A stretch of 61,111 nucleotides of DNA from Deltaproteobacteria bacterium (GTDB lineage: Bacteria > Desulfobacterota > Syntrophobacteria > BM002), in NCBI GenBank assembly GCA_022340745.1, contig JAJDNL010000019.1, positions 1-61,111 of the forward strand, read 5' to 3'. Below are positions 2,814-60,237 of this stretch, in pieces. Each line of letters opens with the position of its first letter. Position 1 is the first letter of the stretch. A program made the translations under genes and the position numbers. A model generated the notes under the pieces. That model was given only the letters and a program-made list of their open reading frames with translations, had not been told where the DNA came from and did not search any database.

Positions 2814-2938
2814 CGCATGGAGCATAGGGAGGTAATTTCGAATTGCGGATTGCGGATTGCGAATTTGAAAAGACATACGATATGGAATAATTATTCTATA
2901 CAAAATGTCTTTTTGCTGCCTGCTGTCTGCTGCTAGCT
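2814..2938. repeat. Composite heptamer-repeat block (GCATRGR, TTGCGGA, CTGCTGC units)
   Basis: 2814-2872 is a near reverse complement of the block at 15657-15716 / 22520-22580. Confidence 0.75.
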
Positions 2939-2976
2939 AACACCGGCCGTAGGGCCAAGACTTTCAAGGAGCAATC

Positions 2977-3180
2977 ATGCCTTATATAAATATCAAAGTG
3001 ACCGAGGAAGGCGTCACAGCAGCTCAAAAGGCTCAACTTATCAAGGGAGTGACAGACCTCCTCGCTGAAGTTCTGGGAAAGAATCCGGCAACTACAGTCG
3101 TGGTCATAGATGAGGTCCATACAGATAACTGGGGTATTGGTGGTGAAACTGTTACGGTGCGACGCCAACGAGGTCAATAA
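2977..3180 (+). CDS. 4-oxalocrotonate tautomerase family protein
   Basis: N-terminal catalytic Pro (MPYINIK), QKAQLIKGVT, NWGIGG; SD AAGGAG. Confidence 0.92.
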   Translation: MPYINIKVTEEGVTAAQKAQLIKGVTDLLAEVLGKNPATTVVVIDEVHTDNWGIGGETVTVRRQRGQ

Positions 3181-3249
3181 GAGATCTCCTGCTTTGGCCT
3201 CATCCTGGGACGAAAATATCGGGTTATTGAACCACCGGTGGAAGGTTCA

Positions 3250-3678
3250 ATGGTGAATGATCTATCCACTAATGCAAAACACCGGCCGAAATGGACTCTT
3301 TTTGCTGCCTTGCTTTTAACCGTGCCGGCTCCCTTCTTCATGCTGGTTGTGGGCGGTATAGTGCCGACATTCTGTATAATCTATCTCGCAGTTCACGGGC
3401 TCATTGTGGCTTTAGCAAAATTCACTGCCGAAGGTTTCTGGATGCTCGGTATATTGTGGACGCATGTCGTAATCCTCGGAGGCCTTCTCTATGTTGCAGC
3501 GGCCGGAATTACCTGGTTGCTGTTCCGCTTCTTACCCTATCGTTACGCTCGCGCGGTGGTGCTTGGGCTGATTGTCGCTCTTTTTGTAGTATCAACCTTT
3601 GAAATCTATCGAGTGCCTGGGCACAACAGTGCTCCACCGGCGAATATATTTCGCATTTATAAGGGCTTCTTTACCTAG
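3250..3678 (+). CDS. Hypothetical integral membrane protein
   Basis: About four hydrophobic segments; ATG at 3250 preceded by GGAAGG. Confidence 0.65.
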   Translation: MVNDLSTNAKHRPKWTLFAALLLTVPAPFFMLVVGGIVPTFCIIYLAVHGLIVALAKFTAEGFWMLGILWTHVVILGGLLYVAAAGITWLLFRFLPYRYARAVVLGLIVALFVVSTFEIYRVPGHNSAPPANIFRIYKGFFT

Positions 3679-3859
3679 CTCGGAGTATTCATGAAGCTGT
3701 GTCGCGAGACCGTGAAGATGGATGTTCCACCTGGCAACCGCAGGGGCTTGAATCCGAGGCGTACTAGAACAGTACGTCGCAGGTTTCAAGGCCAGAGGAC
3801 GCCAGGAAGGACGGTCATATCCACGGTCGAAGCAGCCGATTCATGAATACTATGGGCTA
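3676..3859. mobile_element. MITE family B copy 1 (20-bp imperfect TIRs, TA ends)
   Basis: TAGCTCGGAGTATTCATGAA ... TTCATGAATACTATGGGCTA (17/20 inverted match); internal homology to 9211-9438 and 53905-54234. Confidence 0.85.
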
Positions 3860-3934
3860 ACATCGGCAACAGCGATTCCGCCACGCGCCCCCTGCGGTGT
3901 AGGCGGGATTGCTATTTTTGCTCTGGGAAAGCTC

Positions 3935-4600
3935 ATGGGACAATCTGTAAAACACCGCATCCTCACCGAACTTTTCGTCCTCGGTGTACTAACCACTGTC
4001 TTTCTGGTTGTTTTTCCAAAACGGCCTATCTACCTTGACGTTCTCCTTGCTCTGTTCGCCCTCGGCCTCATTGCCTGGAACGCGCGGTTCACCAGAAACT
4101 CAATCTGGGCTCAGTTTCCACCGGAAGAGGATCTACAGACTCGAGTAAGACGATCATACCTTCTGGCCTCAGCCTTCACTATTCCCATAATTCTTGCCTT
4201 CGCGGCAATCGGACTTGCGCTCGGTTACAGGGAATCCGGCTGGAATGGAGCCTGGGCGCGATTTTTAAACTACCATCTCCCCCTAGCATTCGTCCTCTAC
4301 CTCCCGTGGGCTCTCCTGCAGCAGTTCCTCTTCCAGTTCTACCTTCTCGGGCGTCTTCTTACGCTTTTTCCTACGCCGGTCTCAGTAGTCGTCACGGGGA
4401 TGGCGTACTCTTTAGTCCACTTACCTGACATCGGCGTCACGCTTGCTGCCGCTGCTGCAGGAATCTTCTGGACTTTTCTCTACCGTCGCTATCGAGTCCT
4501 GCTCCCTCTGGGACTCTCTCATGCCTTCCTCGGGTCCACATTTTACTACTGGGTCTGCGGTCACGATCTTTTGATGGTTTGGAAAGAAATGTTACAGTAA
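3935..4600 (+). CDS. CPBP (CAAX protease/Abi) family membrane protein with degenerate first motif
   Basis: Multi-TM; motif order QQFLFQ (canonical EExxxR), YSLVH, LSHAFL. Confidence 0.7.
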   Translation: MGQSVKHRILTELFVLGVLTTVFLVVFPKRPIYLDVLLALFALGLIAWNARFTRNSIWAQFPPEEDLQTRVRRSYLLASAFTIPIILAFAAIGLALGYRESGWNGAWARFLNYHLPLAFVLYLPWALLQQFLFQFYLLGRLLTLFPTPVSVVVTGMAYSLVHLPDIGVTLAAAAAGIFWTFLYRRYRVLLPLGLSHAFLGSTFYYWVCGHDLLMVWKEMLQ

Positions 4601-4663
4601 TTTATCTATTCGTCCATGGATTGTGAGTCCGAAGATATCCGGGCTAAAAAAGGAGTTAACATA

Positions 4664-4924
4664 ATGAGTAATGTCGATGAACTAACAAAGGCATTAGAGC
4701 TTGACAGAGATGGCCATTGGGATAGTGCTCATACAATTGTACAGGGAATTGAATCGTTAGATTCTTATTGGATCCATGCATACTTGCACCGAAAAGAGGG
4801 GGCTTTAGGAAACTCAAACTACTGGTACAGGAGAGCCAACAAGACAATGCCGGAGTATGATATAGATCAAGAATGGAATGAGTTGTATGAATATATCACC
4901 TCAAAGCAAAAAAACGAGAGCTAG
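4664..4924 (+). CDS. Conserved hypothetical protein
   Basis: SD AAGGAG before ATG 4664; WDSAH...WIHAYLHRKEG...NSNYWYRRA pattern. Confidence 0.75.
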   Translation: MSNVDELTKALELDRDGHWDSAHTIVQGIESLDSYWIHAYLHRKEGALGNSNYWYRRANKTMPEYDIDQEWNELYEYITSKQKNES

Positions 4925-5302
4925 GTTTCAGGTGTCAGGAAAAAGAAGCATAGGAGTTGAAAAAGTGACAAAGGAATTTGCCCATTTGCCATTCCTTGTC
5001 ACCTTCATGTCATATGAGCTATAAATGCAACTTCAAAGCCATAAGGATTTTAGATTTTAGAATGCAGATTTTAGATTGAAGAGCTTAGTACCTCGCCGCA
5101 ATGAAGGCGTTTAGCTCAATCTGCAATCATAGATCATACGAAGACTGGCCCTGGGGACCAAGTTTTCTGGGACCTAACAGAGTATTATGTCACTCAACCT
5201 AAACTCAAGCGATTTAGCAAGAATCGGGTGGCTACTCCATCTGCCATAGGCTACGGTGCCTTGAAACGGTAGTCTATAAATTTTCAATCATGGAGATTAG
5301 CT

Positions 5303-6172: not shown

Positions 6173-6204
6173 ATCACTTGCTTTGATTCTCTATCGGAGA
6201 CTAT

Positions 6205-6765: not shown

Positions 6766-6845
6766 GATTGCTTTCTCCAATTTCAGTACAGCTGACCTGG
6801 AAAACAGCTCGTTCGCGCGCTGCGCCCCAACCTCATGGGGGAACA

Positions 6846-7544: not shown

Positions 7545-7581
7545 TGCTACCCACGCCACAAGGCGATGGAAAATAGAGGAA

Positions 7582-7869: not shown

Positions 7870-7882
7870 AAGAGGATCTATT

Positions 7883-9137: not shown

Positions 9138-9210
9138 GCATAATCCGGATTAAAGGAGCACTTTTGTTCTACCACCTTGAAAATCTATCCATCCGTGACT
9201 ATTTTTTCAC

Positions 9211-9438
9211 TACCCCGGATATTTTATGAATTGCTGTCGCGAGGCCACACAGATGGGTGTGCCACCTGGCAACTCGTCCCGCGGTACCGCGGGATTGGGT
9301 CCGAGGCGTACCTGAATGGTACGTCGCAGGGGCCGACACCCGAGGACGCCAGGCTTCCGGCTCGTAGAGCCTACAGCTCGGAGAGAAGGACGGCCATATC
9401 GGTGGCCGCAGCAAGCAATTCATAAAATATCCGGGGTA
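9211..9438. mobile_element. MITE family B copy 2 (perfect 25-bp TIRs)
   Basis: TACCCCGGATATTTTATGAATTGCT (9211-9235) and its exact reverse complement (9414-9438). Confidence 0.9.
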
Positions 9439-9475
9439 ACAGAGTGAATGACCATTGTAGCGGTCGGAGGATTTT

Positions 9476-12412: not shown

Positions 12413-12636
12413 GAGTAGTGCAGTACCGGAGGAATAGAAATTCCAAATCACAAAGAATGAGGTTTCAGGTTTCAGTGTTCAGTTTTCAGTTTTCAGTTTT
12501 TTGGTTGTTCTTCCCTGACACCTGACATCCGACACCTGAAACCCTGAGATTTCTCCTGCGGAGTCCCCACCCTCTGGGCGGGGCCCCAGTTTGGTGCCTG
12601 GAGTTTGGGATTTTATAGACTCAATACTCCAATATT
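12413..12636. repeat. Three-layer nested inverted short-repeat element
   Basis: Inner (GTTTCAG)n 12460-12496 vs (CTGACAC)n 12515-12545; middle AAATTCCAAATCACAAA vs TTTGG..GAGTTTGGGATTT; outer GAGTAGTG.. vs CAATACTCCAATA. Confidence 0.75.
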
Positions 12637-15527: not shown

Positions 15528-15772
15528 CAGTGGTCAGCGGTAAGCAGTAAACAGTGAGCGGTAAACGGTAAACAGTAAGAGATGTGATACGTTATGCATT
15601 ACAGGTCGCTTTCCGACCTCTGCCCGCTGCCCGCTGCCTGCTGCTAGCTGCCTTTTGCTTTTCAAATTCGCAATCCGCAATTCGAAATTCGAAATTGTCT
15701 CCCTATGCTCCATGCCTCCACAATCTGCAATCTAAAATCTCAAATCCTTAAATTCCCCAATCCCTCAATTGT
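15528..15772. repeat. Composite heptamer/octamer repeat spacer inside the ABC operon
   Basis: (CRGTAAR)n 15528-15578, (CTGCCCG)n 15620-15652, (TTCGCAA/TTCGAAA)n, (AATCTNM)n and an octamer tail. Confidence 0.8.
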
Positions 15773-18957: not shown

Positions 18958-19108
18958 AGGGGATTAGGGGATTTTTGATTTGGGATTGCGGATTGTGGAA
19001 TTGAGGAATTCAGGAATTTAGGGATTGGGGAATTGAGAGATTCGATTCTGCAGCAATCGTTCAGCTAGCTTTAATTCCTAAATCTCTTAATTCCTCAATT
19101 CCTTAATA
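18958..19108. repeat. Inverted octamer array (GGAATTNA)n / (TNAATTCC)n
   Basis: GGAATTGA GGAATTCA GGAATTTA GGGATTGG GGAATTGA ... TTAATTCC TAAATCTC TTAATTCC TCAATTCC. Confidence 0.85.
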
Positions 19109-19116
19109 TTGTTGCT

Positions 19117-22156: not shown

Positions 22157-22226
22157 TGACCACCTCCTGAAAACGATGCGATCACGTTACCATGTTTACC
22201 CTAACGTTGCAAACCTGAAGGTATAG

Positions 22227-22595
22227 TCAGGTTTCAGGTGTCGGGTGTCAGGTGTCAGGGAAAAGAAACGTAGAATCCAATAGTCAGTAGCCAGTAGCCC
22301 ACAGTTCGGGTACAGGGTGCAGGGTATAAGGTACAGGGAATTATGTGACTTCTGTTCAGTGCTTTACCCTGTACCTTGCACCTTGTATCTTGTACCGGAA
22401 TTTCCCTGTATTCTGACCTCTAATCTGCGTCTCACCGTTTCTCCGCGTCCCCGCGTCATCTTGTAGTGCTTACTGCCTAGTACAAGTATCTGCCTGCTGC
22501 TAGCCGCCAGCTGCCTTTTGCTTTTCAAATTCGCAATCCGCAATTCGAAATTCGAAATTGTCTCCCCATGCTCTATGCCCCATGCCCCATGCCCT
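22227..22595. repeat. Multi-family nested short-repeat spacer
   Basis: (GGTGTCA)n, (CAGTAGC)n, (GGTACAG)n vs (CCTTGTA)n, (CCGCGTC)n, a 58-bp block shared with 15646-15703, (ATGCCCC)n. Confidence 0.8.
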
Positions 22596-24558: not shown

Positions 24559-24815
24559 TGAAAATGCTACAGCTCGCCCTGTTGAATAGGGTTCCTTTCG
24601 GGAAATTCAACAGGGCGAGCGCATTCCCCGTAGCGACTCGACCTGAGCGACTCGACCTGAGCGACACGACTTGAGCGACTCGACCTGAGCTCGTCGACAG
24701 GTCTCGTCGACAGGTCTTGCTGCGGGGTTAGCGAGCGAACTATAATAAAATGGAATCATTTCCTTACATTTCGAAGATTCCCTGCCCGCCGCAGGCGGAC
24801 TGCAGGGAGCTTCAA
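24559..24815. mobile_element. MITE family A copy 2 (reverse orientation; 2x13-mer + 4x14-mer; extra hairpin insert)
   Basis: TGAAAATGCT ... CTGCAGGGAGCTTCAA with the conserved core GGGGTTAGCGAGCGAACTAYAATAAAATGGAAT. Confidence 0.88.
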
Positions 24816-24898
24816 TTGGAGCCCTGCCATTACCGTTCTACATGCAGTAAAGAATCTGGACCCAAAGGACCTGGCTTTGGACTGCCCTCTTGATGCAA

Positions 24899-25046
24899 GG
24901 CGCTAAGCGCAGAGCGCAAAGCGTGAGGTAAACAGTAAACGGTCAACGGTAAACCGATTGTGCACTGGCTCCGAGACCGCTCACCGTCTACCATTTGCCG
25001 TTTACTTATTTTTTCGCTATGCGCCATGCGCTATGCCCTATGCGAT
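24899..25046. repeat. Two-layer nested heptamer element (homologue at 50579-50720)
   Basis: Outer GCGCTAA/GCGCAAA vs CTATGCG units; inner GTAAACR vs CCRTTTR units. Confidence 0.8.
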
Positions 25047-31783: not shown

Positions 31784-31786
31784 CAC

Positions 31787-31890
31787 TGAGGTTTCAGTGT
31801 TCAGGTTTCAGTTTTTTCCTGACACCTGAAACCCGACACCTGAAACCCCGAGACTTGGTGCCTAGTCCATAGTGCTTAGTGCCTAGTTGG
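31787..31890. repeat. Inverted heptamer array between pheS and pheT
   Basis: (GTTTCAG)n 31789-31811 vs (CTGACAC/CTGAAAC)n 31819-31848, then (TAGTGCY)n. Confidence 0.8.
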
Positions 31891-36035: not shown

Positions 36036-38282
36036 ATGGATTTGACCGACGACCCCTTGGCAGGAGTTGATGCCAGCGAATTAGAGGCCGACATTGACAA
36101 GGCCATAGACGAACTCTTCGTAAAAAAAACCGAGGGGAAGGAACCTTCGCGAGCTGAGGAAGCCCCACCCGAAGAGCCCGACAAAGAACCGGCAGAGAAA
36201 CCAGTGGAAGAATCTGTCCCGGCTCCGCCGGCTGAAGCCGCAGATGATCCTTTAGCTCAATTGAAGGAGAGTCTTCTCACTCTGGATTGGGAAATTACTC
36301 CGGAGTCCATACAGGATTTTGAAAAAGAGCTCCAGGCCGTTAGCGACAAGCACGGTGATGATCGTCACTGCATGGCAGTGATTAAAATGTCCCTGGGCGT
36401 GCTCACATATCTACGGGCTGCAAAGGCTGATGCAGCGCCGATCTCCGTCCAGTTTTTACATGGAGCTACCCGCGGTCTTGATCTCTTCCTGCGGGAGTCA
36501 GAACCCACAGAGGCTGAGCGCAGCGAGGTAATGGACCAATTGCTCGGTCAATTTAGGCGGGTGAAGGCTGAGATCCAGCGGATGAAACCGTCGGCAGAAA
36601 GACCTCCAGCAGTTGAGCCCGAACCAGCCGTCGAGCCTCCGCCAGATGATGAGCCGATTTTGGAAGAAATGGTCGCGGAAGAACCAGCGCTGGAGGAGAT
36701 AATCGAGGAAGAGCCGATTCTGGAGGAGGCTGCCGCAGAGGAACCAATACTGGCGGCTACCCCTGAAGACGAACCAGTTCTAGACGAACTATTTGGGGAA
36801 GAACCGGTATTAGAAGAAGCGCTCGAGGAAGAGCCGATTCTGGAGGAGGCTGCCGCAGAGGAACCAACACTGGCGGCTACCCCTGAAGAAGAACCAGTGC
36901 TGGACGAATTATTCGGAGAGGAACCGGTATTAGAGGAAGCGCTCGAAGAAGAGCCGACTCTGATCGCTCCTGCAGAAGAAGAACCCTTGCTGGAAGAACC
37001 TCCGGAAGAAGAACCGACACTGGAAGCACTCACCGCAGAGGAACCAACACTGGCGGCTACCTCTGAAGAAGAACCAGTGCTGGACGAGCTTTTGGAAGAA
37101 GAACTTGTCGCTGAAGACATACCCGGGGCAGAGCCAACTCCGGAGGCACCTCCCGAGGAGGAACCAGTTTTTGAGGAGCTTTTCGACGAAGAACCGGTTC
37201 TGGAGCCAGCGGCAGAGCCAGCGGAAATGGCTCCGCCACCTGAGATGGTCCCGGCTGATACTCCTGCATCCCAGCAGCCCTTCATCCAAGAAGCCAGAGC
37301 CCTGAGTGGTCAACTTTCCAATGCTTTGCAGGTCCTTGACCAGGAGACCACCACCTTTTTTGCTCGCATTTTGCAAGCAATGGCAGGCAAGCCTGCTCTC
37401 CAGAAATTAGAGAGACATTTTGGCTCCGTGCATAAGACTGTAGGAGCTAAACTGACAGACGCCCAGGAACTGTCCGGCAATCTGAGTGCAGCGCTGAGCA
37501 AACTTGAGCAAAATTTAGACCAGCAGCAAGAGGGAGCCCTTGCCCCGAAAGCCCAGGCTGCAATTGATTCGCAGGTTACAACTATCCGTAATGCTGTTCA
37601 GAGTCTAAGTCAGGCCGCTTCCAACCTGCAGCACAGTCTTGCCGGTAAGGGTGTGGCATCCGAAGGGATAGCATTCAAAGATGCGCAATTGGAAACTGAA
37701 GAGTTCTCCTTGGATTCTGATGAGTTCATGGAGTCTCTAGATTCCGAACCAGTATTGGACCTGGTCGAGGAGATACCTTCCGAGTCCCCTGGTATGACTC
37801 CCGATGCACAGGCTAGCATTTACCTGGCCGACGTGGTCAACAACACCCTGGGTATTCCTGCGGAGGCCGTCGTCAATATCTACAAGGTTTCCAAGGGCAA
37901 AGTGAAGAGTTTGCGCAAGAGAGGTTACCTTAGACTGACCGATTTCAAGGGGGCATTTCGCAGCATCAAGCGGGGAATTACTGGTCCTCTCGCCAACCTC
38001 AAACCGAAAGACTTGAAGAAAATCCAATTCCCCATTATCACTCTTGGTGCGGAAATCCTTGGCAGCGATGACACCGAGGCCGTAGCCCCCGTCAGAGGTA
38101 TTGTTCTGCTCAGCACTGGTGAGCGCCACGGTGCCTTACTGACTGATGAGGTCATGCAAAGGACGCCCTATGACGTCAAAGGCTTCCGCAAAGCTGGGGT
38201 ACCAGGAAAGGTGAGCGGCACGGCCACCATTGAAGGAGATTTTGAGATTAACGTTATTGATCCGAACTACGTGCTCTCGTAA
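36036..38282 (+). CDS. Large acidic protein with EEEP decapeptide repeats and possible C-terminal CheW-like domain
   Basis: LKESLLTLDWEIT helical domain; about 19-20 EEEPxL repeats; C-terminal beta domain LGIPAEAV...ALLTDEV...SGTATI...VIDP. Confidence 0.75.
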   Translation: MDLTDDPLAGVDASELEADIDKAIDELFVKKTEGKEPSRAEEAPPEEPDKEPAEKPVEESVPAPPAEAADDPLAQLKESLLTLDWEITPESIQDFEKELQAVSDKHGDDRHCMAVIKMSLGVLTYLRAAKADAAPISVQFLHGATRGLDLFLRESEPTEAERSEVMDQLLGQFRRVKAEIQRMKPSAERPPAVEPEPAVEPPPDDEPILEEMVAEEPALEEIIEEEPILEEAAAEEPILAATPEDEPVLDELFGEEPVLEEALEEEPILEEAAAEEPTLAATPEEEPVLDELFGEEPVLEEALEEEPTLIAPAEEEPLLEEPPEEEPTLEALTAEEPTLAATSEEEPVLDELLEEELVAEDIPGAEPTPEAPPEEEPVFEELFDEEPVLEPAAEPAEMAPPPEMVPADTPASQQPFIQEARALSGQLSNALQVLDQETTTFFARILQAMAGKPALQKLERHFGSVHKTVGAKLTDAQELSGNLSAALSKLEQNLDQQQEGALAPKAQAAIDSQVTTIRNAVQSLSQAASNLQHSLAGKGVASEGIAFKDAQLETEEFSLDSDEFMESLDSEPVLDLVEEIPSESPGMTPDAQASIYLADVVNNTLGIPAEAVVNIYKVSKGKVKSLRKRGYLRLTDFKGAFRSIKRGITGPLANLKPKDLKKIQFPIITLGAEILGSDDTEAVAPVRGIVLLSTGERHGALLTDEVMQRTPYDVKGFRKAGVPGKVSGTATIEGDFEINVIDPNYVLS
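36646..37210 (+). repeat. Coding tandem repeat, 30-bp period with a 120-bp higher-order duplication
   Basis: 36705-36824 and 36825-36944 are near-identical. Confidence 0.88.
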
Positions 38283-42213: not shown

Positions 42214-42391
42214 TTGAAGCTCCCTGCAGCAAGACCTGTCGACGAGACTTGTCGACGAGCTCAATTCGTGTCGCTCAGGTCGAGTCGCTGCAGGGAATCT
42301 TCGAAATGTAAGGTATTTATACCATTTTATTGTAGTTCGCTCGCTAACCCCGCCGCAAGCTGCGGGGAATGCGCTCGCTGAAGCATTTTCA
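42214..42391. mobile_element. MITE family A copy 3 (2x13-mer + 2x14-mer)
   Basis: TTGAAGCTCCCTGCAG ... GCATTTTCA; its terminal TCA is the miaA stop codon on the minus strand. Confidence 0.9.
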
Positions 42392-43333: not shown

Positions 43334-43428
43334 CAATCTTGTGGTTCCTCCAACACTTTAGAAGCCCTCGTCTCTATTCGCCACGCCTGCTGTGTAGCGG
43401 CCACTGCATGGCGCCTGCGCATGCAGAT

Positions 43429-43632
43429 AAATCCGAAATCCGAAACAAATCTAAGACAATCGATGTGGGATGTGAGATGTGCGATGTGGGAAGGAGAAAT
43501 ACGTCTACCATAATCTCACATCTCATATCTCATATCTCACATCACAATCAAAATTTGTTTCGTGCTTCGTGCTTCGGATTTCGGATTTGGTTTTGAACGT
43601 GCTCTATGCCCCATGCCCTATGCTCTATGCCC
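43429..43632. repeat. Nested inverted heptamer element between mutL and miaA
   Basis: Shell 43429-43450 / 43553-43588; inner (GATGTGR)n vs (ATCTCAY)n; (CTATGCY)n array abutting the mutL stop. Confidence 0.88.
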
Positions 43633-45412
43633 TCCCAAACATCCTTTCTACCTCACCCATAGTGAGTTTCCACCAGAGAGGACGGCCGTGTGGGCAGGTT
43701 GAGCAACGATCTAGTCCATCGAGCTGCTGCAAGAGTGCCGCAATCTCCTCCCTCCCCAACCTCTGGCCAGCCTTTATGGCGACCTGGCACGCCATTGATT
43801 GCAGTAGTTTCTCAAGCAGAGTCTCCGGTCCGAGAGAGCCTGCCCCCTTACAGCCGGCTGCCACCAACTCCTGAAGCAGTTCTAATGGCTCTTGGCGGAG
43901 GACCACTGCCGGAACCGCACGTACTACGAAGGTATAGCTACCAAATGGCTCCAACCTAAACCCCAACTTTGAAAAGAGAGGCAAGGAGTCCTCCAGCCAG
44001 GCGCTCTCCTCAGCAGTGAGCTCTACAGTCTCAGTAATCATCAAAATCTGACTTGACAGTTGCCCTTCAATCGCCTCTTTATGAAAAGCCTCGAAAAAAA
44101 CACGCTCGTGAGCCGCGTGCTGATCAATAAGAATCAGACCGTCCGGCGCTTCGCAGAGAATATAGGTGTTGTGGAATTGACCTATGACATTCAGTTCGCC
44201 AAACAACAGCCCGAGTTCCTGGTGCAATTTTTCCGGTGGTCGCCTGCTTTCTTCATCCGTGGAAAAACCTCTCTGGGGAAAATCGAGCGCCTCATAGGTT
44301 TGAATCCTTGGCTCGGATACTGCTGCCCCCGCAGGTGAGAGAGGCGCCAATTTACCTTGAATCAGAGCCTCGGCAGCTCGCAGCCCAGAGCCTGCAACCA
44401 GAGGCCGAGCCCATCTCTGCCTCTCCATAGTGGCCAGCGCGGCTTGCGCCGCAGACGTTACTGTTGCACAGAGAGTCCGCGGATCTTGGAAACGCACCTC
44501 CGCTTTCGTTGGGTGCACATTTACATCCACTTGCTGGGCAGGCAATTCCAGAAAAAGCACCCCGAGAGGATATTTACCCTTTGGCAGCAATGTTCTGTAG
44601 GCCTCCAGAAGGGCAAACCTCAGCTGGCGATCCCAAACCGGTCTGCCATTGACGTAAAGGAAAAGCATGCGGCTGTCAGATCGGTAAAGCTCTGGGGGGC
44701 TTAGAAATCCTTCAAAATTCAAGACCCCTTGTCTGTGGGATACTGCCAACCAGGATTGTGTTGATCTCTTGGGGAAGATTTGTGCCAGCCGCTGCTGCAG
44801 ATTTATCGCTGCGGGCCAGTCATGAATCTGGCGATTTTTCTGCCTCAGGGAGAAATGGGTTTCCGGTCGTCCCAGGGCCAGCCTGGTCAGCGTATCTACC
44901 ACCTGTCCGAACTCGGTCTTCTCACTTTTCAGAAATTTACGTCGCGCTGGTTGATTAAAAAAAAGATCACGAACCCACACTTGGGTACCAGGTGGACAGC
45001 CGCACTCGTTCACTCCTTTCACCACCCCTGCAGAGGCACTAATACGAGTACCCGCGGTGGAGTCCCTCGTTCTCGTTGTGAGCTCAAATTTCGACACCGC
45101 CGCCAGGCTCGGGAGGGCTTCACCGCGAAATCCGAGGGTTTGGATGGCAGCGAGGTCTGCATCGCTGCTGATCTTACTGGTAGCATGCCGCTCAAGGGCC
45201 AGAATGGCGTCGTCCTCTTCCATACCGACACCATTATCAACCACCCGTATGGAACGGCAGCCTGAACCATGGATTTCGATGCTTATCTGGCGAGCTTCCG
45301 CATCTATGGCATTCTCAACCAGTTCTTTTACCGCTGAAGCAGGCCTTTCAACTACCTCACCGGCGGCAATCTTGTTGGCCAGCTGTTCTGACATCACACG
45401 AATCGTGGCCAT
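43625..45412 (-). CDS. mutL: DNA mismatch repair endonuclease MutL
   Basis: IAAGEVVERP, GFRGEAL, VDVNVHP, DQHAAHER, CPHGRP. Confidence 0.98.
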   Translation of the reverse strand: MATIRVMSEQLANKIAAGEVVERPASAVKELVENAIDAEARQISIEIHGSGCRSIRVVDNGVGMEEDDAILALERHATSKISSDADLAAIQTLGFRGEALPSLAAVSKFELTTRTRDSTAGTRISASAGVVKGVNECGCPPGTQVWVRDLFFNQPARRKFLKSEKTEFGQVVDTLTRLALGRPETHFSLRQKNRQIHDWPAAINLQQRLAQIFPKRSTQSWLAVSHRQGVLNFEGFLSPPELYRSDSRMLFLYVNGRPVWDRQLRFALLEAYRTLLPKGKYPLGVLFLELPAQQVDVNVHPTKAEVRFQDPRTLCATVTSAAQAALATMERQRWARPLVAGSGLRAAEALIQGKLAPLSPAGAAVSEPRIQTYEALDFPQRGFSTDEESRRPPEKLHQELGLLFGELNVIGQFHNTYILCEAPDGLILIDQHAAHERVFFEAFHKEAIEGQLSSQILMITETVELTAEESAWLEDSLPLFSKLGFRLEPFGSYTFVVRAVPAVVLRQEPLELLQELVAAGCKGAGSLGPETLLEKLLQSMACQVAIKAGQRLGREEIAALLQQLDGLDRCSTCPHGRPLWWKLTMGEVERMFGRA

Positions 45413-45502
45413 CCAATCCTCCTTTTGTCAACATCCCCCTATCCTAATCCTATTCAGTACGATTTGACAACCGTCACCGAATGAATTGGAGCGCTGATCA
45501 TT

Positions 45503-45860
45503 GAAGATTTTAGAATGCAGATTGCAGATTTAATTTTGAAATTTCCAAAACACCCATCCATTTAGCTCTGCATACTGTGGATGCTAGATTTCGATATGCA
45601 CTTTTATTTTCTAACCACAGAGACACGGAGGCATGTAATTTCAGATTGCAGAATGCAGAATGCAGAATGCGAAATTTAGTAAGATCAGATTTGTTTATAT
45701 CTACAATCTTAAATCTAAAATACTCGTTTATTCCCTCCGTGGTAAATCCTCACTCAGGTTTCCTCAGGGCGCTACAATAAGGACTAGGTTAATATGGTCG
45801 TATTTCAATTTCGGAGTTTTCAATCTGCAATCCAAAATCTGAAATCTGAAATTGGAAATT
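45503..45860. repeat. Three-layer nested repeat element in the divergent mutL intergenic region
   Basis: Outer and inner (GAWTGCA)n vs (AATCTNM)n; middle AACCACAGAGACACGGAG vs CTCCGTGGT. Confidence 0.75.
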
Positions 45861-46033
45861 GGTTGACACAACTTCCTAAATAGGCTATTCATGGACCGAA
45901 CCGTGGCCCGGCATGAGATAACATGTGGTAACAATTAATAATATTGGTCAGAGTACGGTGAGATAGCACCCGAACGGGCATGTCTATCGAGCCGCTTCAT
46001 TTATATCCTTCTGTGCCCCACCTGCAGGTCCAT

Positions 46034-47488: not shown

Positions 47489-47601
47489 ATGTGCGTCTGG
47501 ATCGGTTTCGCCCAGATACCATCACCGCTGAAAATTAGATCGAGATTATGGTTGGACGGATTAACTTGTCGCCAGAGAAGACTCCCGTTAGGTAGGTAAT
47601 T

Positions 47602-48633: not shown

Positions 48634-48813
48634 CAGTAAGCAGTAAGCGGTGAGCAGTAAGCAGTTAGTGGCAAGAATGTAGTAATTAAGGAGCATTGAG
48701 GCAACTCGATTGCGGATTTGGGAATGCGGAATGCGGATTGCTCCATTTAGATTGAGTTTTTGATTTGCAATCTATTTTTTTCAATCCGAGATCCGAAATC
48801 CGAAATCCGAAAT
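48634..48813. repeat. Heptamer arrays between convergent genes
   Basis: (CAGTAAG)n after the mreB stop; (GAATGCG)n vs (AATCCGA)n ending at the ABC ATPase stop. Confidence 0.82.
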
Positions 48814-50557: not shown

Positions 50558-50578
50558 TGTCGTTACCCTTTTGAAGCA

Positions 50579-50720
50579 AAGCGCTAAGCGCAAAGCGTGA
50601 GGTAAATAGTACACAGTAAACGGTCAACAGATTGTGTGCTGGCTTCGCGACAATTCACCGCTTACCATTTACCGTTTACTCTTTTTTTCGCTATGCGCCA
50701 GGCGCTGTGTTCTATGCGAT
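50579..50720. repeat. Two-layer nested heptamer element (homologue of 24899-25046)
   Basis: Colinear similarity including GCGCAAAGCGTGAGGTAAA, GATTGTG..CTGGCT and CCGTTTACT..TTTTTTCGCTATGCGCCA. Confidence 0.8.
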
Positions 50721-50812: not shown

Positions 50813-50963
50813 TTGAAGCTCCCTGCAGCAAGACCTGTCGACGAGCTCAGGTCGGGTCGCTGCAGAGAATCTTCGAAATGTAAGGAAGTGATTCCATTTT
50901 ATTGTAGTTCGCTCGCTAACCCCGCAGCAAGCTGCGGGGAATGCGCTCGCTGAAGCATTTTCA
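50813..50963. mobile_element. MITE family A copy 4 (1x13-mer + 1x14-mer)
   Basis: Full scaffold; right hairpin unmodified (CCCCGCAGCAAGCTGCGGGG). Confidence 0.9.
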
Positions 50964-51001
50964 AGATGAAGCATACCTTACGGTTTCACTGCACCGCCGC
51001 C

Positions 51002-52130: not shown

Positions 52131-52308
52131 AAATTGCAAATTAAGGAATTAAGGAATTGTATTCGTCCTTCGTATTCATGGTGTGCAATTGTAATTGACT
52201 CTCGAAAATACTTGTCGGTCCCTAGCAATCACCTTCCGAGATTCCTAAATTCCTCAATCCCTAAATACCTCAATTCTGTAATTCCTAAATACCTCAATTC
52301 CTAAATTT
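52131..52308. repeat. Inverted octamer array (same family as 18958-19108)
   Basis: AATTAAGGAATTAAGGAATT vs about eight (TMAATWCC) units ending at the DUF167 stop. Confidence 0.82.
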
Positions 52309-52599
52309 CTACTTTGTGAGTAGCTGCCGCACCTCTTCTGCTGATATTCCCTCGATAGCAATGCTCTTGGCCCGGGATGTAGCGCCTGAGGCAATACTCA
52401 TGTGACTCCTGGGAACCCTGAGTTTCTTGGCCAGAAATTTGAGCAAGTGTTTGTTGGCCGCCCCTGCAACCGGAGCTGCGGTTATGCGTATCTTGACCGC
52501 ATCTCCATGGGGCCCCGCCACCTCGTCCCGAGAGGCCCGGGGTTGCACCTGCACCCTGAGAATTACCCCATTTTTACTGTCGCTCACAAAAGAAGACAC
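52309..52599 (-). CDS. yggU: DUF167 (YggU/UPF0235) protein
   Basis: VQPRASR, APVAGAAN, SGATSRAK. Confidence 0.9.
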   Translation of the reverse strand: MSSFVSDSKNGVILRVQVQPRASRDEVAGPHGDAVKIRITAAPVAGAANKHLLKFLAKKLRVPRSHMSIASGATSRAKSIAIEGISAEEVRQLLTK

Positions 52600-53764: not shown

Positions 53765-53904
53765 ACGAGACAACTCCTTGGTGGTTAAAAATTTGGGCCC
53801 GAGGGCTTTGAAGGGTTTCAGGTGTCAGGTGTCAGAGAAAAACCTAAAAATTAGGGTAAAGACTGATTTGAATGTACAAAGGAAAGAAAAACAAACAGCT
53901 TTGC

Positions 53905-54234
53905 AAGCCCGGATGTTTCATGAAAATGCTGCAGCGAGCGCAGTCCCCTGGGCCCGCTTCTCGAGCGGGACGGGGTTAGCGAGCGAACTACAATAAAATG
54001 GAATACCTTCCTTACATTACGAATCCCGCTTCAGCGGGACTGCAGTTTACTGCAGGGAGCTTCAATTGTCGTCGCGAGACCGTGGAGAAGGATGTACCAC
54101 CGGGCAACCGCAGGGGGTTGGATCTGAGGCGTACTTGAAAAGTACGTCGCAAGGTCAGGCACCCGAGGACGCCCGGAAGGACATTGATATCCTCGGTCGT
54201 AGTCACGCCGTGGCGTGATGAAATATTCGGGCTA
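53905..54234. mobile_element. MITE family B copy 3, interrupted by MITE A copy 5
   Basis: TIRs AAGCCCGGATGTTTCAT / ATGAAATATTCGGGCTA; the B body resumes at 54066. Confidence 0.85.
53921..54065. mobile_element. MITE family A copy 5 (reverse orientation, nested in B)
   Basis: TGAAAATGCT ... CTGCAGGGAGCTTCAA with conserved core. Confidence 0.88.
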
Positions 54235-55244: not shown

Positions 55245-55409
55245 GATCCACCTATGTTGATAATTGGCCGAAGCCATTTGTTGTTTGCCGTCGATCATCT
55301 ATCGGCAACCGTTCCTTGAACATGATGCAATTTTCGTACTTGAAATGAAGATTACTCTTCTTTCCTTCAATTCGCACCAACCATTTTGGTTGCGCTACAA
55401 CTGACATTA

Positions 55410-55552
55410 TTGAAGCTCCCTGCAGTCCGCCTGCGGCGGCCAGGGAATCTTCGAAATGTAAGGAAGTGATTCCATTTTATTGTAGTCCGCTCGCTAACCC
55501 CGTCCCGCTCGAGAAGCGGGACCAGGGGAATGCGCTCGCTGGAGCATTTTCA
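55410..55552. mobile_element. MITE family A copy 6 (upstream of proC)
   Basis: Full scaffold; hairpin tips replaced by TCCGCCTGCGGCGG and TCCCGCTCGAGAAGCGGGA. Confidence 0.9.
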
Positions 55553-55571
55553 CTAGGATAGGGAGACTGTT

Positions 55572-56387: not shown

Positions 56388-56419
56388 GAACAGGCTCCTT
56401 TCTTCGATTGGAGTCTGTC

Positions 56420-56563
56420 AAATCCGAAATTCGAAGCACGAAGCACGAAACAAATTCAAAACTCGAATTTTCCAATTTCTCAAACAATACCATACTATTA
56501 AGGCATTTAATGTTTTGGTCATTTGGATTTTGGTAAATCGGATTTGTTTCGGATTTCGGATTT
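56420..56563. repeat. Inverted heptamer shell element (reverse complement of the 43429-43588 shell)
   Basis: Arms of 36 bp (35/36 match) and 22 bp (exact match); different interior. Confidence 0.88.
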
Positions 56564-56624
56564 TATTTTTATGCTTCTTCTTTGTGCGACGGACCACGGA
56601 CAACTGACTACGGACGCCGGCCGG

Positions 56625-57461
56625 CTAGGCCGGCGTAATTTCCATACTCATATCAACGGCCCGGGCTGAATGAGTCAGGGCACCAACTGAGATCAGATCG
56701 ACTCCCGTAGCAGCCACTTCCCGGACATTGTCCAGGGTAATTCCTCCCGAAGCCTCAAGAGGGACTTTTCCCCCAGTTCGCCGCACAGCCTCTGCCATGG
56801 TTTTCAGATCCATGTTGTCCAACATTATAGCGTCAGCCCCGGCAGCTATGGCTTCAGCTAATTGATCCAGCGTCTCCACTTCCACTTCTACCCTTAAGGA
56901 ATGACGATTGCTCGCCCTTGCCGCCCCCACTGCCTGTTGAATAGACCCTGCCGCCGCTATGTGATTGTCCTTGATTAGAATCCCATCGTAAAGCCCAAAG
57001 CGGTGGTTGTAGCCGCCTCCGGCTCGAACTGCAGCTTTCTCCAACAAACGGTATGCGGGGGTTGTTTTGCGGGTATCTAGAATGTGGGCGGCAGTCCCGG
57101 CTACTTTGTCCACGAAGGCTCGAGTGAGTGTTGCGATACCGGAAAGTTGCTGTAGAAAGTTTAGGGCAGTGCGTTCGCCCATGAGCATGGCAGCCAGATC
57201 CCCTTCTATCTCTAATAGCTTATCTCCTTCCTTTGCTCGGCTGCCGTCCTTCTGAGAAAGAGTGATCGCAAGCCCGTTATCAACCTTCAGAAAGACTTGT
57301 CTGGCGATATCTGTTCCGGCAAGAACCAGTGGTTCTTTGGCAATAATACACCCCTTACCCAAAGCGCCTGGGGCCACTGTGCAGGCAGTGGTGATATCAC
57401 CGTTTCCTATGTCCTCGGCCAGTGCTCTGTTGATCAAATTTTCCACTTCATCGGATAACAA
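56625..57461 (-). CDS. nadC: Nicotinate-nucleotide diphosphorylase (carboxylating)
   Basis: ERTALNFLQ..SGIAT, DTRKTTP, HRFGL, IKDNH, EASGGI, ISVGALTHS. Confidence 0.97.
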   Translation of the reverse strand: MLSDEVENLINRALAEDIGNGDITTACTVAPGALGKGCIIAKEPLVLAGTDIARQVFLKVDNGLAITLSQKDGSRAKEGDKLLEIEGDLAAMLMGERTALNFLQQLSGIATLTRAFVDKVAGTAAHILDTRKTTPAYRLLEKAAVRAGGGYNHRFGLYDGILIKDNHIAAAGSIQQAVGAARASNRHSLRVEVEVETLDQLAEAIAAGADAIMLDNMDLKTMAEAVRRTGGKVPLEASGGITLDNVREVAATGVDLISVGALTHSARAVDMSMEITPA

Positions 57462-57464
57462 GCC

Positions 57465-60119
57465 CTATACCTCGCCACTGAGCTTTGTCAGTTTTTCAAG
57501 TTGCGCCTGGAGCTTCTCCAGTTTGCCGCGCAATCTCTCCAGTTTTTCCTTTTCTTTGGCGACAATGTCTGCAGGGGCCTGCGTGAGAAATGCATCGTTG
57601 GTCAGTTTCTTCCGGGTCCTGGCCAGTTCAGGCTCCAGCTTGCCGATTTCCTTCTGCAAGCGCCGATTTTCTTCCTTGAAGTCAAGGACACCCTCGAGTG
57701 GCACGAACAACTCAAGCTCTCGCACCACAGCCGAAGCCGCCACCCGAGGTCGCTCCCCGTCCTGAACCACCTCCAGCGATGACAGCCTGGCCAGATCTTC
57801 TATGTAATGGCTATAAGTCTTGACAATACTGGTGAGGCTATTTGGGCCAAAAACCACGGTGTCCACCTGGGCAGCCGGAGCAACATTCATCTCTCCCCTA
57901 ATGTTTCTGATGGCCGTGGTCACATCCATCATAACTGCCATCTGCTCTTCCCCCGGACGGTCCACCAAAGATTCATCTCGTCTGGGAAACTCTGCCACCA
58001 TAATGCTGCCTTCATGATCTGGTAGATGCTGCCATAATTCCTCGGTAACATAAGGCATAAAGGGATGGAGCAGCCGAAGAACGGAAGAAAGCCCATGAAG
58101 GAGAAACTGTTGGGTTTCTTTGCGATCCGTCTCGTCGTCACCGTAAAGGACTGGTTTGATCATTTCAAGGTACCAGTCGCAGAACTCGTGCCAAGTGAAC
58201 TGATAGAGCACACTGGCAGCCTCATTGAAATGATAAGAATTCAGCGCCTCGTCTACCTGGCGGACAATTTCCTGCAAACGACTCAGCATCCAGCGATCTG
58301 CCAACCTTTTGGGCTCGGGTAACACCCCGGCGGCTTCCACCCCCTCGAGATTCATGAGAGTAAAACGGCTGGCATTCCAGATCTTATTGACAAAATGCCT
58401 GTAACCTTCGATTCGCTCTTCAGAAAGACGAACGTCTCTTCCCTGTGCTGCGAATGCTGCCAAAGTAAACCGAAAAGCATCTGTACCATAACGGTCCATG
58501 ATCACCAGAGGGTCGATAACATTTCCCTTAGACTTGCTCATCTTCTGGCCCTCGGCATCTCTGACAAGAGCGTGAATGTAGACGTCATGGAATGGCACGT
58601 CTTTCATGAAATGCAAGCCCATCATCATCATTCGTGCCACCCAGAAAAAAAGAATATCGAAACCGGTAACCAGAACAGAAGTGGGGTAAAAGATCTCAAG
58701 TTCTGGTGTCTTCTCAGGCCATCCCATGGTGGAGAATGGCCAGAGGGCGGAACTGAACCAGGTATCCAATACGTCGCTCTCTTGGTTCAGGTTGTTGCTG
58801 CTACAGCGATTGCACTGTTTCGGCTCCTCCATGGCAACGATGACTTCATCGCAATCTTGACAGTACCATGCGGGAATACGGTGTCCCCACCAGATCTGTC
58901 GTGAAATGCACCAATCTTCTATGTTTTCTAGCCAGTCGAAGTAGTTCTTCTCCCACATCTCTGGGATTATACGGGTTCTTCCTTCCCGCACCGCTGCCAT
59001 GGAAACTTCGGCCATCTGTTTCACCGCCACAAACCATTGCTTGGAGAGTGTGGGCTCGATGATGGTCTTACAGCGGTAGCAGTGTCCCACTCTATGCTGG
59101 TAGTCCTCAACTTTTACGAGCAAGCCCTGCCCTTGGAGGTCTTCAACTATCTGCTGACGACAACTATCACGGTCCATGCCAGAGTATGGACCAGCCTCTT
59201 CGTTCATCACGCCTTCATCGTCCATCACCCTGATCACTGGCAACCCGTGCCTTTGGCCAATTTCAAAGTCGTGTGGATCGTGGGCTGGGGTTACTTTCAG
59301 CGTGCCAGTGCCGAACTCCCGGTCCACGTATTCATCTGCAATCACCGGCAACTCGCGGTTTAGCAGAGGGAGTAAGACTTTTTTCCCAATGAAATCACGG
59401 TAACGCTCATCTTCAGGGTGTACCGCCACACCGGTGTCTCCAAGCATAGTTTCCGGTCGGGTAGTGGCCACGACCAGACCGTCAGTTCCATCAGGGGCAG
59501 GATAGTGCAGGTGGTAAAGCCGCCCCTCCCTCTCTTCCGCCTCCACCTCCAGATTAGCCAGTGCTGTGACGCATCGCGGGCACCAATTGATAATACGCTG
59601 GCCTCGGTAGATCATGCCCTCATGATAGAGGGAAACGAAAACGCGCCTCACGGCTTCAGAAAGACCTTCGTCCATGGTGAAGCGCTCTCGACTCCAATCG
59701 CAACTTGCACCTAACCTCTTGAGTTGATTGATTATTTTTCCACCGTAAAGTTCGCGCCACTCCCAAACCCTCTTGATGAACTTTTCCCTTCCTAGCTGGT
59801 GCCTGTCCAAGCCTTCTTCTGCAAGCTGACGTTCGACCACATTCTGGGTGGCGATGCCAGCGTGGTCGGTGCCAGGCATCCAGAGCACATTTTCTCCATA
59901 CATGCGCTTGTATCGGCAGAGGATGTCCTGCAGGGTATTGTTGAGGGCATGCCCCATGTGCAGATCACCGGTAACATTCGGTGGAGGGATCACGATGGAA
60001 TAGGCTGGATTGCTGCTGTTTTCGTCAGCTCGAAATAAATTCTGCTTTTCCCAAAATTGATACCACTTTTCCTCTGCAGCTTCTGGTTCGTAGGCTTTGG
60101 GAAGCACTGAGTTCTTCAT
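57465..60119 (-). CDS. valS: Valine--tRNA ligase
   Basis: PPPNVTGDLHMGH, WCISRQIWWGHRIP, KMSKS, C-terminal coiled coil; ATG at 60119. Confidence 0.98.
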   Translation of the reverse strand: MKNSVLPKAYEPEAAEEKWYQFWEKQNLFRADENSSNPAYSIVIPPPNVTGDLHMGHALNNTLQDILCRYKRMYGENVLWMPGTDHAGIATQNVVERQLAEEGLDRHQLGREKFIKRVWEWRELYGGKIINQLKRLGASCDWSRERFTMDEGLSEAVRRVFVSLYHEGMIYRGQRIINWCPRCVTALANLEVEAEEREGRLYHLHYPAPDGTDGLVVATTRPETMLGDTGVAVHPEDERYRDFIGKKVLLPLLNRELPVIADEYVDREFGTGTLKVTPAHDPHDFEIGQRHGLPVIRVMDDEGVMNEEAGPYSGMDRDSCRQQIVEDLQGQGLLVKVEDYQHRVGHCYRCKTIIEPTLSKQWFVAVKQMAEVSMAAVREGRTRIIPEMWEKNYFDWLENIEDWCISRQIWWGHRIPAWYCQDCDEVIVAMEEPKQCNRCSSNNLNQESDVLDTWFSSALWPFSTMGWPEKTPELEIFYPTSVLVTGFDILFFWVARMMMMGLHFMKDVPFHDVYIHALVRDAEGQKMSKSKGNVIDPLVIMDRYGTDAFRFTLAAFAAQGRDVRLSEERIEGYRHFVNKIWNASRFTLMNLEGVEAAGVLPEPKRLADRWMLSRLQEIVRQVDEALNSYHFNEAASVLYQFTWHEFCDWYLEMIKPVLYGDDETDRKETQQFLLHGLSSVLRLLHPFMPYVTEELWQHLPDHEGSIMVAEFPRRDESLVDRPGEEQMAVMMDVTTAIRNIRGEMNVAPAAQVDTVVFGPNSLTSIVKTYSHYIEDLARLSSLEVVQDGERPRVAASAVVRELELFVPLEGVLDFKEENRRLQKEIGKLEPELARTRKKLTNDAFLTQAPADIVAKEKEKLERLRGKLEKLQAQLEKLTKLSGEV

Positions 60120-60237
60120 TTCCTTCTTCCTTCTCCGTTGTCCGCAATCAGTCGATGAACACCGCACTATCTTTTACCACGGACAACTGACTACGGACAA
60201 CTGTCAGGAGTTTCCCTAAAATGCCATTTGCGATCTT

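Follow-up and report, generated by a model that had tools for sequence, protein, structure and literature searches.

Two kinds of repeat are among the closest described parallels to the DNA considered here. The first are the short tandemly repeated repetitive sequences (STRRs), heptamer repeats of heterocystous cyanobacteria reportedly described by Mazel et al. in 1990, in which small dispersed repeat (SDR) mini-elements are said, after Elhai et al. in 2008, to be embedded. The second are the intervening sequences (IVSs) of 23S rRNA in Leptospira, Coxiella, Xanthomonas and others, which have complementary ends and an optional gene for a four-helix-bundle protein. To our knowledge, cyanobacterial heptamers and rRNA IVSs have both been on record for more than thirty years and regarded as unconnected oddities, with no mechanism established for either, and neither fold-back pairing nor a link to the protein family TIGR02436 (S23p/Avd-like) is part of the STRR description. 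The present analysis concerns degenerate tandem arrays of 7- and 8-nt units in a 61,111-nt stretch of DNA from a Deltaproteobacteria bacterium (contig JAJDNL010000019.1, positions 1 to 61,111, of assembly GCA_022340745.1; hereafter the window) and in the remainder of the same genome. We lean, with confidence a little better than even, towards reading these arrays as the arms of selfish fold-back elements of the 23S rRNA IVS kind, mostly gene-less and lodged in the spacers between genes. The evidence for this consists of the confinement of the arrays to spacers, the copying of whole modules, length change by whole units, exchange of sequence within conserved outer arms, and flips of orientation; the gene-bearing form, moreover, carries its own arm family, even across phyla.

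Several other systems invite comparison. Repetitive extragenic palindromic (REP) sequences, bacterial interspersed mosaic elements (BIMEs), REP doublets forming hairpins (REPINs) and hairpin-forming miniature inverted-repeat transposable elements (MITEs) of the Correia type are short intergenic palindromic modules, mosaic in structure, found in either orientation and co-transcribed, and Correia hairpins are RNase III substrates. The elements described here differ from these in having no REP-associated tyrosine transposase (RAYT)/Y1, in arms built of tandem 7/8-mers instead of a single palindrome, and in lacking definable terminal repeats with a target duplication; their arms are inverted, and the search for a parent transposase covered Y1 only. 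Like the STRRs as described, they are degenerate heptamer arrays dispersed through intergenic DNA and holding small nested inserts; the hosts differ, cyanobacterial there and Syntrophobacterales-like here, and TIGR02436 copies on Nostocales plasmids bear the arm family of two copies in this genome. The 23S IVSs resemble them in their complementary ends and optional four-helix-bundle gene, and rRNA copies in genome G021 and in Azospirillum also have arms with a periodicity of roughly 7 nt, whereas the IVSs sit in rRNA helices (helix 25 or 45 of 23S rRNA) and all window copies lie between protein genes; nearly all copies here are gene-less, they number hundreds per genome, and they nest. Upstream of the Coxiella S23p open reading frame (ORF), the available text of one report describes three tandem heptamers that vary in number by strain, the first of them being cut by RNase III (PMC4990558). 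In Geobacter metallireducens, according to the portion of the paper available, four or five tandem 7/8-mers occur in multicopy, mostly as opposite-strand pairs at variable distance, in intergenic positions and within operons (proB-proA), and have been interpreted as sites for IHF/HU or a regulator (Aklujkar et al. 2009, PMC2700814). The arrays here agree with that description in their median of four copies, short-range pairing and intergenic location, whereas tens of pairs are reported there against hundreds of fold-backs here, and the available part of that source shows no TIGR02436 link. The TAACTGA direct repeats of Beggiatoaceae, as far as the accessible text goes, are intergenic, present in 2-6 copies and patchily distributed across phyla including cyanobacteria and Bacteroidetes, which suggests horizontal transfer, and binding of a regulator type has been proposed for them; they differ in consisting of a single unit, in being direct (1 of 170 sets inverted) and in lying just upstream of start codons (PMC4679880). 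In the literature searched we found no statement that complementary tandem-unit arms enclose TIGR02436 genes as a general rule, no extension of such a rule to true 23S IVSs, no account of proliferation in a Syntrophobacterales-like genus, and nothing relevant on heptamer or tandem repeats in Syntrophus or Smithella.

Tandem Repeats Finder (TRF), whose thresholds overlook weak arrays, returned 80 rows in the window, mostly of period 7 with 2-6 copies and 72-100% matches, which merged into 51 arrays of period 7/8. Of the 33 spacers with a length above 40 bp, 18 carry at least one array; an original prediction made from the sequence alone had counted at least 14 such spacers. That prediction had also seen no coding sequence interrupted. 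Wholly within spacers lie 47 arrays, two run past the end of an ORF (by 9 and 27 nt), and the other two fall inside the first 15 or so codons of a crude longest ORF. The flanking genes include lon, an ABC ATPase gene, recJ, pheS, miaA, mutL, mreB and an ABC permease gene, and arrays do sit inside operons (pheS-pheT, mutL-miaA) and beside ABC genes, as had been proposed. The predicted 7/8 periodicity is a property of the whole genome: period 7 accounts for 2299 of 4483 TRF rows, and a Markov-3 simulation based on this genome yields 55 of 557; period 8 gives 416 rows against 101 and period 14 gives 555 against 12. Measured against a crude map of longest ORFs of at least 120 aa, which covers 79% of the genome, 2020 of the 2299 period-7 rows are fully outside ORFs, 165 fully inside and 114 straddle an edge. 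Arrays occupy 897 of 2248 spacers (40%), at rates of 0.35-0.49 across all four arrangements of the flanking genes. When strands are treated alike there are 261 unit types, with a median of four copies per array, and the commonest are linked in one-mismatch networks, for example ACACCTG (187 arrays) and AAACCTG (127 arrays). No Rfam family matches the fold-back arrays.

The cyanobacterial frame in which the repeats had originally been placed does not suit their host. PheT shares 90% identity with that of an uncultured Syntrophobacterales metagenome-assembled genome (MAG) and 44-48% with those of Syntrophaceae and Thermodesulfobacteriota MAGs, making the host Syntrophobacterales-like. Array density is 59 per 100 kb in this genome (G000) and 1.4 in the Markov control; among congeners it is 36 in G002 and 12 in G011 (100 kb sampled each), in another genus of the family (G018) it is 8 (100 kb), and in three genomes of sister families, with 20-60 kb sampled, it is 0-1.7.

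Pairing of a left arm with a reverse-complement right arm, the second feature originally claimed, is well above chance. Genome-wide, 660 of 2246 arrays have a reverse-complement partner, defined as a match of at least 12/14 to two reverse-complemented units within 300 bp, compared with 108 for direct, 40 for reversed and 78 for complemented control units. Shuffling units among arrays gave the same picture, with 238 inverted pairs observed against 77 +/- 11 and 26 direct pairs observed against 76. The effect is of short range: inverted and direct pairs number 256 and 20 below 200 bp and 17 and 12 at 300-600 bp, and beyond 600 bp inverted pairs show no excess over direct ones. Within the window, where the threshold was at least 12/14 or 14/16, the claim holds for 22 of the 51 arrays, whereas about half are unpaired (for example those at 15540, 15620, 15664, 22527, 43600 and 48634). 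Summed over 256 fold-backs, 5069 arm positions match and 1041 do not, a complementarity of about 83%. The mismatches are symmetric, G/T 179 against A/C 158 and C/T 255 against A/G 225, the second pair being dominated by family 1 (described below), and thus reveal neither a wobble preference nor an adenine-specific pattern. Partnered arrays are predicted to form long stems from their complementary ends, as IVSs do: z scores range from -4.9 to -7.5 for the fold-backs at 31786-31850, 18985-19110, 22305-22398 and 43425-43592, the copy at 12455-12548 reaching only -1.96. In samples of 110 spacers per class, drawn from 511, 218 and 148, spacers with partnered arrays fold at -0.295 kcal/nt against -0.229 when shuffled. 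The ratio of sense to antisense folding in spacers with unpaired arrays, 70:40, may be explained by base composition, and no conclusion is drawn from it. Nesting of the fold-backs is real but modest, and not the rule that the image of Russian dolls in the original prediction implied: it occurs in the window at 24895-25044, 43429-43588 and 45500-45862, while among 471 fold-back intervals 24 neighbouring pairs are nested, 11 crossing and 4 serial, and strict TRF-called pairs alone give 3 nested, 2 serial and none crossing.

The connection with IVSs comes from the genes that such arms enclose. This genome encodes 11 TIGR02436 proteins and one GxxExxY protein, all outside the window. Inspection by eye places complementary tandem arrays, with periods of 7, 8 or about 14-16, on both sides of each of the 10 TIGR02436 genes that have two flanks; the eleventh lies at a contig edge. 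When the 5' flank was aligned locally with the reverse complement of the 3' flank, these 10 genes scored 22-55, compared with a median of 15 and a 95th percentile of 21 for 760 control genes of 120-200 aa; scores of at least 30 were reached by 7 of the 10 and by 14 of the 760. The flanks of the GxxExxY gene are complementary too, judged by eye only, with a CACGGA motif about every 10 nt. Complementary flanks recur at all 20 further TIGR02436 genes of four congeners and, elsewhere in the class, at 13 of 15 such genes from other genera and families, one of the remaining flanks being masked and one weak. The suggestion in the original prediction that arms of this kind flank TIGR02436 and GxxExxY genes elsewhere is thereby borne out; among the ORFs between arrays, no other protein family recurs. 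The element of G021 is a true 23S rRNA IVS with CAAGGNN-type arms; no 23S rRNA was found in the assemblies of G000, G002, G011, G013 and G018. A AAAGGGGCAC-like motif stands 5-10 nt before the start codon of many TIGR02436 genes in this bacterial family (contigs C282, C148, C267, C287 and C101 of G000; loci L172-L176 and L209-L226) and is probably a strong ribosome-binding site travelling with the element.

The original prediction had also regarded the arms in this stretch as empty forms of gene-bearing elements, and for most window families a gene-bearing counterpart does exist in this genome or in a congener: GGGTACA, GTGCCTA, GCAAAGC/CGCTATG, GATGTGG, CTGCCNG, CCATGCN, AATCCGN, ATTGCAG, ACGGACA and both octamers. 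Conversely, the arm families of gene-bearing elements are abundant in gene-less form, with 13-232 matches in the genome. Sharing of flank 6-mers rises with protein identity among 33 elements, from 0.09 (below 40%) through 0.11 (40-55%) and 0.18 (55-70%) to 0.24 (above 70%), with a Spearman rho of 0.17 over pairs that are not independent, which indicates that gene and arms are inherited as a unit. Other cargo was sought and rejected: inverted arrays 250-1500 bp apart enclose ORFs in 61 of 91 cases and direct pairs in 62 of 86, the candidates being unrelated housekeeping genes (peptidase, radical SAM, FlpD, HhH-GPD, ABC permease, NuoE). Seemingly triple-nested flanks around housekeeping genes arise because complete fold-backs occupy both neighbouring spacers.

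The association extends to plasmids of other phyla. All 12 plasmid TIGR02436 loci inspected by eye have tandem arrays on both sides, and 9 of the 12 score as inverted; Pseudanabaena has only direct AAAAGCT-type arrays, Bernardetia mainly direct ones, and the low flank scores of Gemmatirosa and Azospirillum are unreliable owing to guessed ORF bounds, their arms being visible by eye. The Azospirillum plasmid copy lies inside a 23S rRNA gene. For one paralogue of this genome the closest plasmid homologues are from Nostocales (61-65% identity), and these bear the AGTCAGG/CCTGACT arm family, as do both copies of that subfamily here. Such homologues fit tightly into operons, 20-60 nt being left on each side, as between cas10 and cmr3 in Picosynechococcus. 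As a separate observation, this Picosynechococcus copy (L152) is one of several TIGR02436 genes with array arms that interrupt defence operons on plasmids, three phyla being represented; others lie between cas6 and cas4 in Pseudanabaena (L161) and, in Chlorohelix and Gloeocapsa (L154/L156), between genes for a DUF1156 protein and a HEPN protein of the Swt1 family.

How the arrays came to be dispersed is best seen in family 1, the most abundant fold-back, of which the genome holds 87 copies with a GGTGTCA-type left arm, a purine-rich loop of about 18 nt and a CTGAAAC-type right arm. Its consensus spans a specific order of variant units and the non-repetitive loop; the exact variant order is kept in the left arm of 32 copies, in the right arm of 40 and in both arms of 17. 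A 35-nt insert has 9 copies, and in the 8 that are evaluable it occupies an identical position and orientation in the right arm; in two of these it is itself interrupted by a further insert. The majority of window spacers that bear arrays match tens to hundreds of other sites in the genome, and a composite of three arrays at 15536-15750 recurs almost whole (15615-15750) at 22490-22594. Because copies have a common variant-unit order and loop, modules must have been copied whole, and the arrays are mostly dispersed modules of this kind.

The same observations bear on an explanation without any element, in which replication slippage in place, together with quasipalindrome correction by template switching, would generate the arrays, similar units reflecting convergence or mutational bias. 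Much about the arrays is in keeping with it: they are short and degenerate, with a median of four copies, their unit families form one-mismatch networks, the arm mismatches are symmetric and many are of transition type (G/T 179, A/C 158), no strand bias is seen, whole-unit change occurs in natural strains, where 7 nt have been lost at 43476, and in many bacteria no long repeat unit is commoner than the heptamer (Mrazek 2007, as cited in the accessible text of PMC4679880). Slippage in place does not account, however, for 87 copies with a common variant order and non-repetitive loop, for an insert at one position in 8 of 9 copies, for a repeated three-array composite, for an arm family that travels with its protein subfamily between a Syntrophobacterales-like genome and Nostocales plasmids, or for a density that falls to background in sister families (0-1.7 versus 59 per 100 kb), and we consider it improbable as a full account.

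Orthologous spacers reveal rapid turnover. A systematic difference between the two arms of family 1, at one position in each unit, makes flipped copies recognisable. At 17 pheS-pheT loci of the genus and family the spacer carries family 1 in one orientation in three species and in the opposite orientation in four; outer octamer arms enclose it, and in other species these hold a different heptamer family or a unique loop only, while the sister families have a plain hairpin. In relatives of about 90% identity the array-bearing window spacers vary two- to three-fold in length, whereas an array-free spacer upstream of mreB (47489-47601), which serves as an internal control, measures 112-113 nt in all five close relatives. 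The spacer at 53774-54231, which follows a gene ending at 53773, contains four different fold-back families in four species and none in two, and between mutL and miaA the congener G009 has the same outer arms as the window around a different inner part. A 44-nt orthologue of the spacer 43337-43624 in G003 may be an anchoring artefact and was not used. Assembled contigs of one RNA run (X15) and three DNA runs were compared as well, the Logan contigs of RNA runs containing parts of the stretch at shares of 0.07-0.13. In a metagenome contig of run X4 one 7-nt unit is missing at 43476, and in another contig of the same run, which has a 114-letter anchor, both outer arms (45500-45528 and 45817-45862) are retained while 48 other letters replace the 288 nt between them.

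This turnover speaks against a second explanation, that the arrays are host sites, regulatory or architectural, for a global regulator, a nucleoid protein (IHF/HU) or a single-strand binder of the cold-shock type. Widespread occupancy (40% of spacers) would suit such sites, as would units in common with the other genus of the family (CAGGAGC, ACTAGGC, AGCATGG, CAATCTA and CGCTATG in G018). Precedents can be named too: the available part of PMC2700814 lists 24, 21 and 8 opposite-strand pairs of tandem octa- or heptanucleotides in intergenic positions (proB-proA), and CspB binds one heptamer per protein, as stated in the accessible text of PMC4679880. Family 1, however, has no preferred orientation or distance to genes: every copy with two flanking genes is intergenic, and orientation is split 22 and 23 in the two co-directional settings and 19 and 16 otherwise, with 7 copies at contig edges. 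Spacer types are occupied alike, 261 distinct units exist, and arrays are gained, lost, flipped and swapped at the same gene pair in relatives of about 90% identity, unlike conserved operators. On balance a role as host sites is unlikely, to the same degree as slippage alone.

The genome contains three reverse-transcriptase (RT) ORFs, one of group II intron type, one consisting of an RVT_1 domain alone and one in a protein of more than 1200 aa. The iterative short-template synthesis first proposed, in which an RT and an Avd-like protein would make the arms unit by unit before integration, can draw on these three ORFs and on the relation of TIGR02436 to Avd, the accessory protein of diversity-generating retroelements (NF033474 match at 1.3e-07; PMC10053308, available text), but it is very improbable, since the RTs and the 11 TIGR02436 genes are on different contigs (unlike those retroelements, in which Avd lies beside an RT with template and variable repeats), one of the three RTs is an intron enzyme, the arrays are degenerate, the arm mismatches have no adenine- or strand-specific signature, and copies that keep their variant-unit order and loop fit module copying and not fresh synthesis at each site. 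As an aside on the last of these ORFs, the frame of more than 1200 aa on contig C174 (L115, 43-3663) has a single RT domain at residues 487-707 and no other Pfam match, and is cut at both ends of the locus.

If the arrays are indeed arms of selfish fold-back elements, existing copies might serve as templates for new ones placed into hairpins, or the loops of hairpins, already present, through recombination or template switching between shared arms or through an element-specific activity. Hairpin apices would be the preferred targets, as suggested by the position of true IVSs in the loops of rRNA helices and of inner modules here in the loops of outer ones. Transcribed either way, the imperfect stems of 25-35 bp may behave like IVSs, as RNase III substrates or as hairpins at mRNA ends, which could let an element occupy operons without breaking genes. 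The presence of an RNase III gene in the genome, together with the IVS-like length and imperfection of the stems, makes cleavage of mRNA plausible. Arms of tandem units would also tolerate slippage, because they can re-pair in another register.

A number of points weigh against the selfish fold-back reading. About 70% of the arrays in the genome have no detected partner, and some composites do not fold, the unpaired one at 15615-15750 being unstructured (z -0.84). Sense and antisense strands fold equally in co-directional spacers with partnered arrays (58:52) and the elements face their neighbouring genes at random, so that no sign of a strand-specific RNA role emerges; RNase III cleavage would follow only from the precedent of rRNA IVSs. 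Neither a target duplication nor a clean empty site could be delimited in orthologous spacers. No mobilising enzyme was identified, and no Y1/RAYT transposase was found, PF01797 having 0 matches in this 95.8%-complete genome while the control search matched 6 of 14 genomes. Family 1, for all its abundance, matches the arms of none of the 31 TIGR02436 genes examined in the genus, and blastn found no TIGR02436 remnant in gene-less copies, so that these may be deletion derivatives or the gene may have been captured by arms. Nor, in the few genomes with both values, does the number of TIGR02436 genes track array density: G000 has 11 genes at 59 arrays per 100 kb, G002 has 1 at 36, G011 has 6 at 12 and G018 has 4 at 8 (G026 has 6 genes). 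Finally, the genome is a MAG of 3.9 Mb in 301 contigs, in which repeats may be collapsed or mis-assembled, and the relatives compared with it are not independent; in the contigs of sequencing runs, joints from 43444, 43450 or 43451 to 43552 or 43566, skipping the inner fold-back, are weak, with sides of 18-23 letters that may stem from other copies.

A broader and considerably more doubtful proposal, offered tentatively, is that S23p/TIGR02436 proteins bind their own arms sequence-specifically and, together with these, constitute one hitherto unrecognised class of mobile element that targets hairpin apices. The idea that the protein might read its own arms stems from solved relatives (2gsc, 2rld), which have five chains per entry, and from arms that are usually of 4-6 units. 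Such a class would span at least six phyla, with STRRs, the Geobacter sites and the present gene-less fold-backs among its footprints or non-autonomous copies, and its apex targets could be rRNA helix loops, terminator-like hairpins and the loops of its own members.

Along the window, the first arrays are unpaired AATTGCG (4.6 copies) and TGCTGCC (2.9) at 2834-2933, where 2815-2877 is a dispersed module with 52 blastn matches in the genome, and unpaired GATTTTA (4.6) at 5046-5077, called by TRF. Downstream of lon, 12455-12548 holds a flipped family-1 fold-back with 187 matches (TTTCAGT, 5.4 copies; loop; CCTGACA, 4.3). The unpaired three-array composite at 15536-15750 (z -0.84) consists of GTAAACA (5.6), CTGCCCG (4.7) and AAATTCG (4.7) followed by CCATGC-type units. 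At 18958-19107 the octamer ATTGAGGA (5.8 copies) faces TTAATTCC (4.6) in a fold-back with a z score of -5.99; octamer arms, named in the original prediction, are confirmed here (18992-19107) and at 52139-52311, where the arms are unequal, AATTAAGG in 2.5 copies facing ATTCCTAA in 8.9. The left arm and the start of the loop of family 1 (GTCAGGT, 4.9), followed by CCAGTAG (3.3), lie at 22226-22299 with 177 matches. The adjoining fold-back at 22305-22398 sets GGGTACA (4.4) against TACCTTG (4.6), has a z score of -7.38 and belongs to the arm family of the TIGR02436 element L214 in the congener G009. The second composite copy, unpaired and called by TRF, extends over 22490-22594 up to the start of recJ, with AAATTCG (4.7) and CCCCATG (4.4).

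The nested fold-back at 24895-25044 has outer arms of GCAAAGC (4.1) and CGCTATG (4.3) around an inner GGTAAAC (4.0) and its reverse complement near 24989. Between pheS and pheT, 31786-31887 comprises a family-1 fold-back (AGGTTTC, 3.9; CCTGAAA, 4.3; z -4.93) and then unpaired GTGCCTA (4.3). Between mutL and miaA, 43429-43633 (z -7.48) shows outer AAATCCG/TTCGGAT arms around inner GATGTGG (4.3) and ATCTCAC (4.4), followed by unpaired TGCCCTA (4.9). At 45500-45862, outer ATTGCAG (4.4) and AATCTGA (4.4) surround the 288 nt at 45529-45816, which contain an inner fold-back of CAGAATG (4.1) and ATCTAAA (3.3). Downstream of mreB, 48634-48813 has CAGTAAG (4.6), GGAATGC (3.0) and AATCCGA (4.4), and at 50576-50679 GCAAAGC (3.1) and ACCGTTT (3.3) both have a reverse-complement partner nearby. 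The left arm and loop of family 1 alone are found at 53812-53850, in the spacer where congeners have other fold-back families or none, and CGAAGCA (2.6), partnered TTTCGGA (2.4) and ACGGACA (3.9) occur at 56432-56615.

The window also holds other repeats. A second dispersed element of about 180-240 nt, G+C-rich, apparently highly structured and with short inverted ends, lies at 3681-3863, 9202-9441, 50813-50968, 53906-54231 and 55406-55556; it has 116-134 blastn matches in the genome and no Rfam match at E<=1, and the copy at 54000-54231 is present in G000 and G009 and absent from the orthologous spacer of four other congeners. A third, of about 260 nt, contains inverted tandem 13/14-mers of the AGCGACTCGACCTG and CTCGTCGACAGGT types (1894-2012, 24559-24819, 42214-42388), with about 141 matches in the genome, very high summed contig depth in all four runs compared and no Rfam match. 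Unrelated to the spacer arrays, the ORF at 36036-38282 contains a coding tandem repeat at 36651-37104 with a period of 120 nt (sub-periods 30 and 60), about 2.6 copies and many Glu and Pro codons, which marks the product as a repeat protein.

In practical terms, these repeats break metagenome assemblies, and the length of the spacers that hold them is a fast strain marker. The work raises ideas that can be put to the test: recognition of its own arms by the TIGR02436 protein, excision of the stems from mRNA, and the choice of hairpin apices. For the biology of these bacteria, the analysis suggests that heptamer repeats and rRNA IVSs may be one fold-back element, with or without an Avd-like four-helix-bundle gene, and that such elements can colonise 40% of the spacers of a genome, including those within essential operons, without breaking genes.

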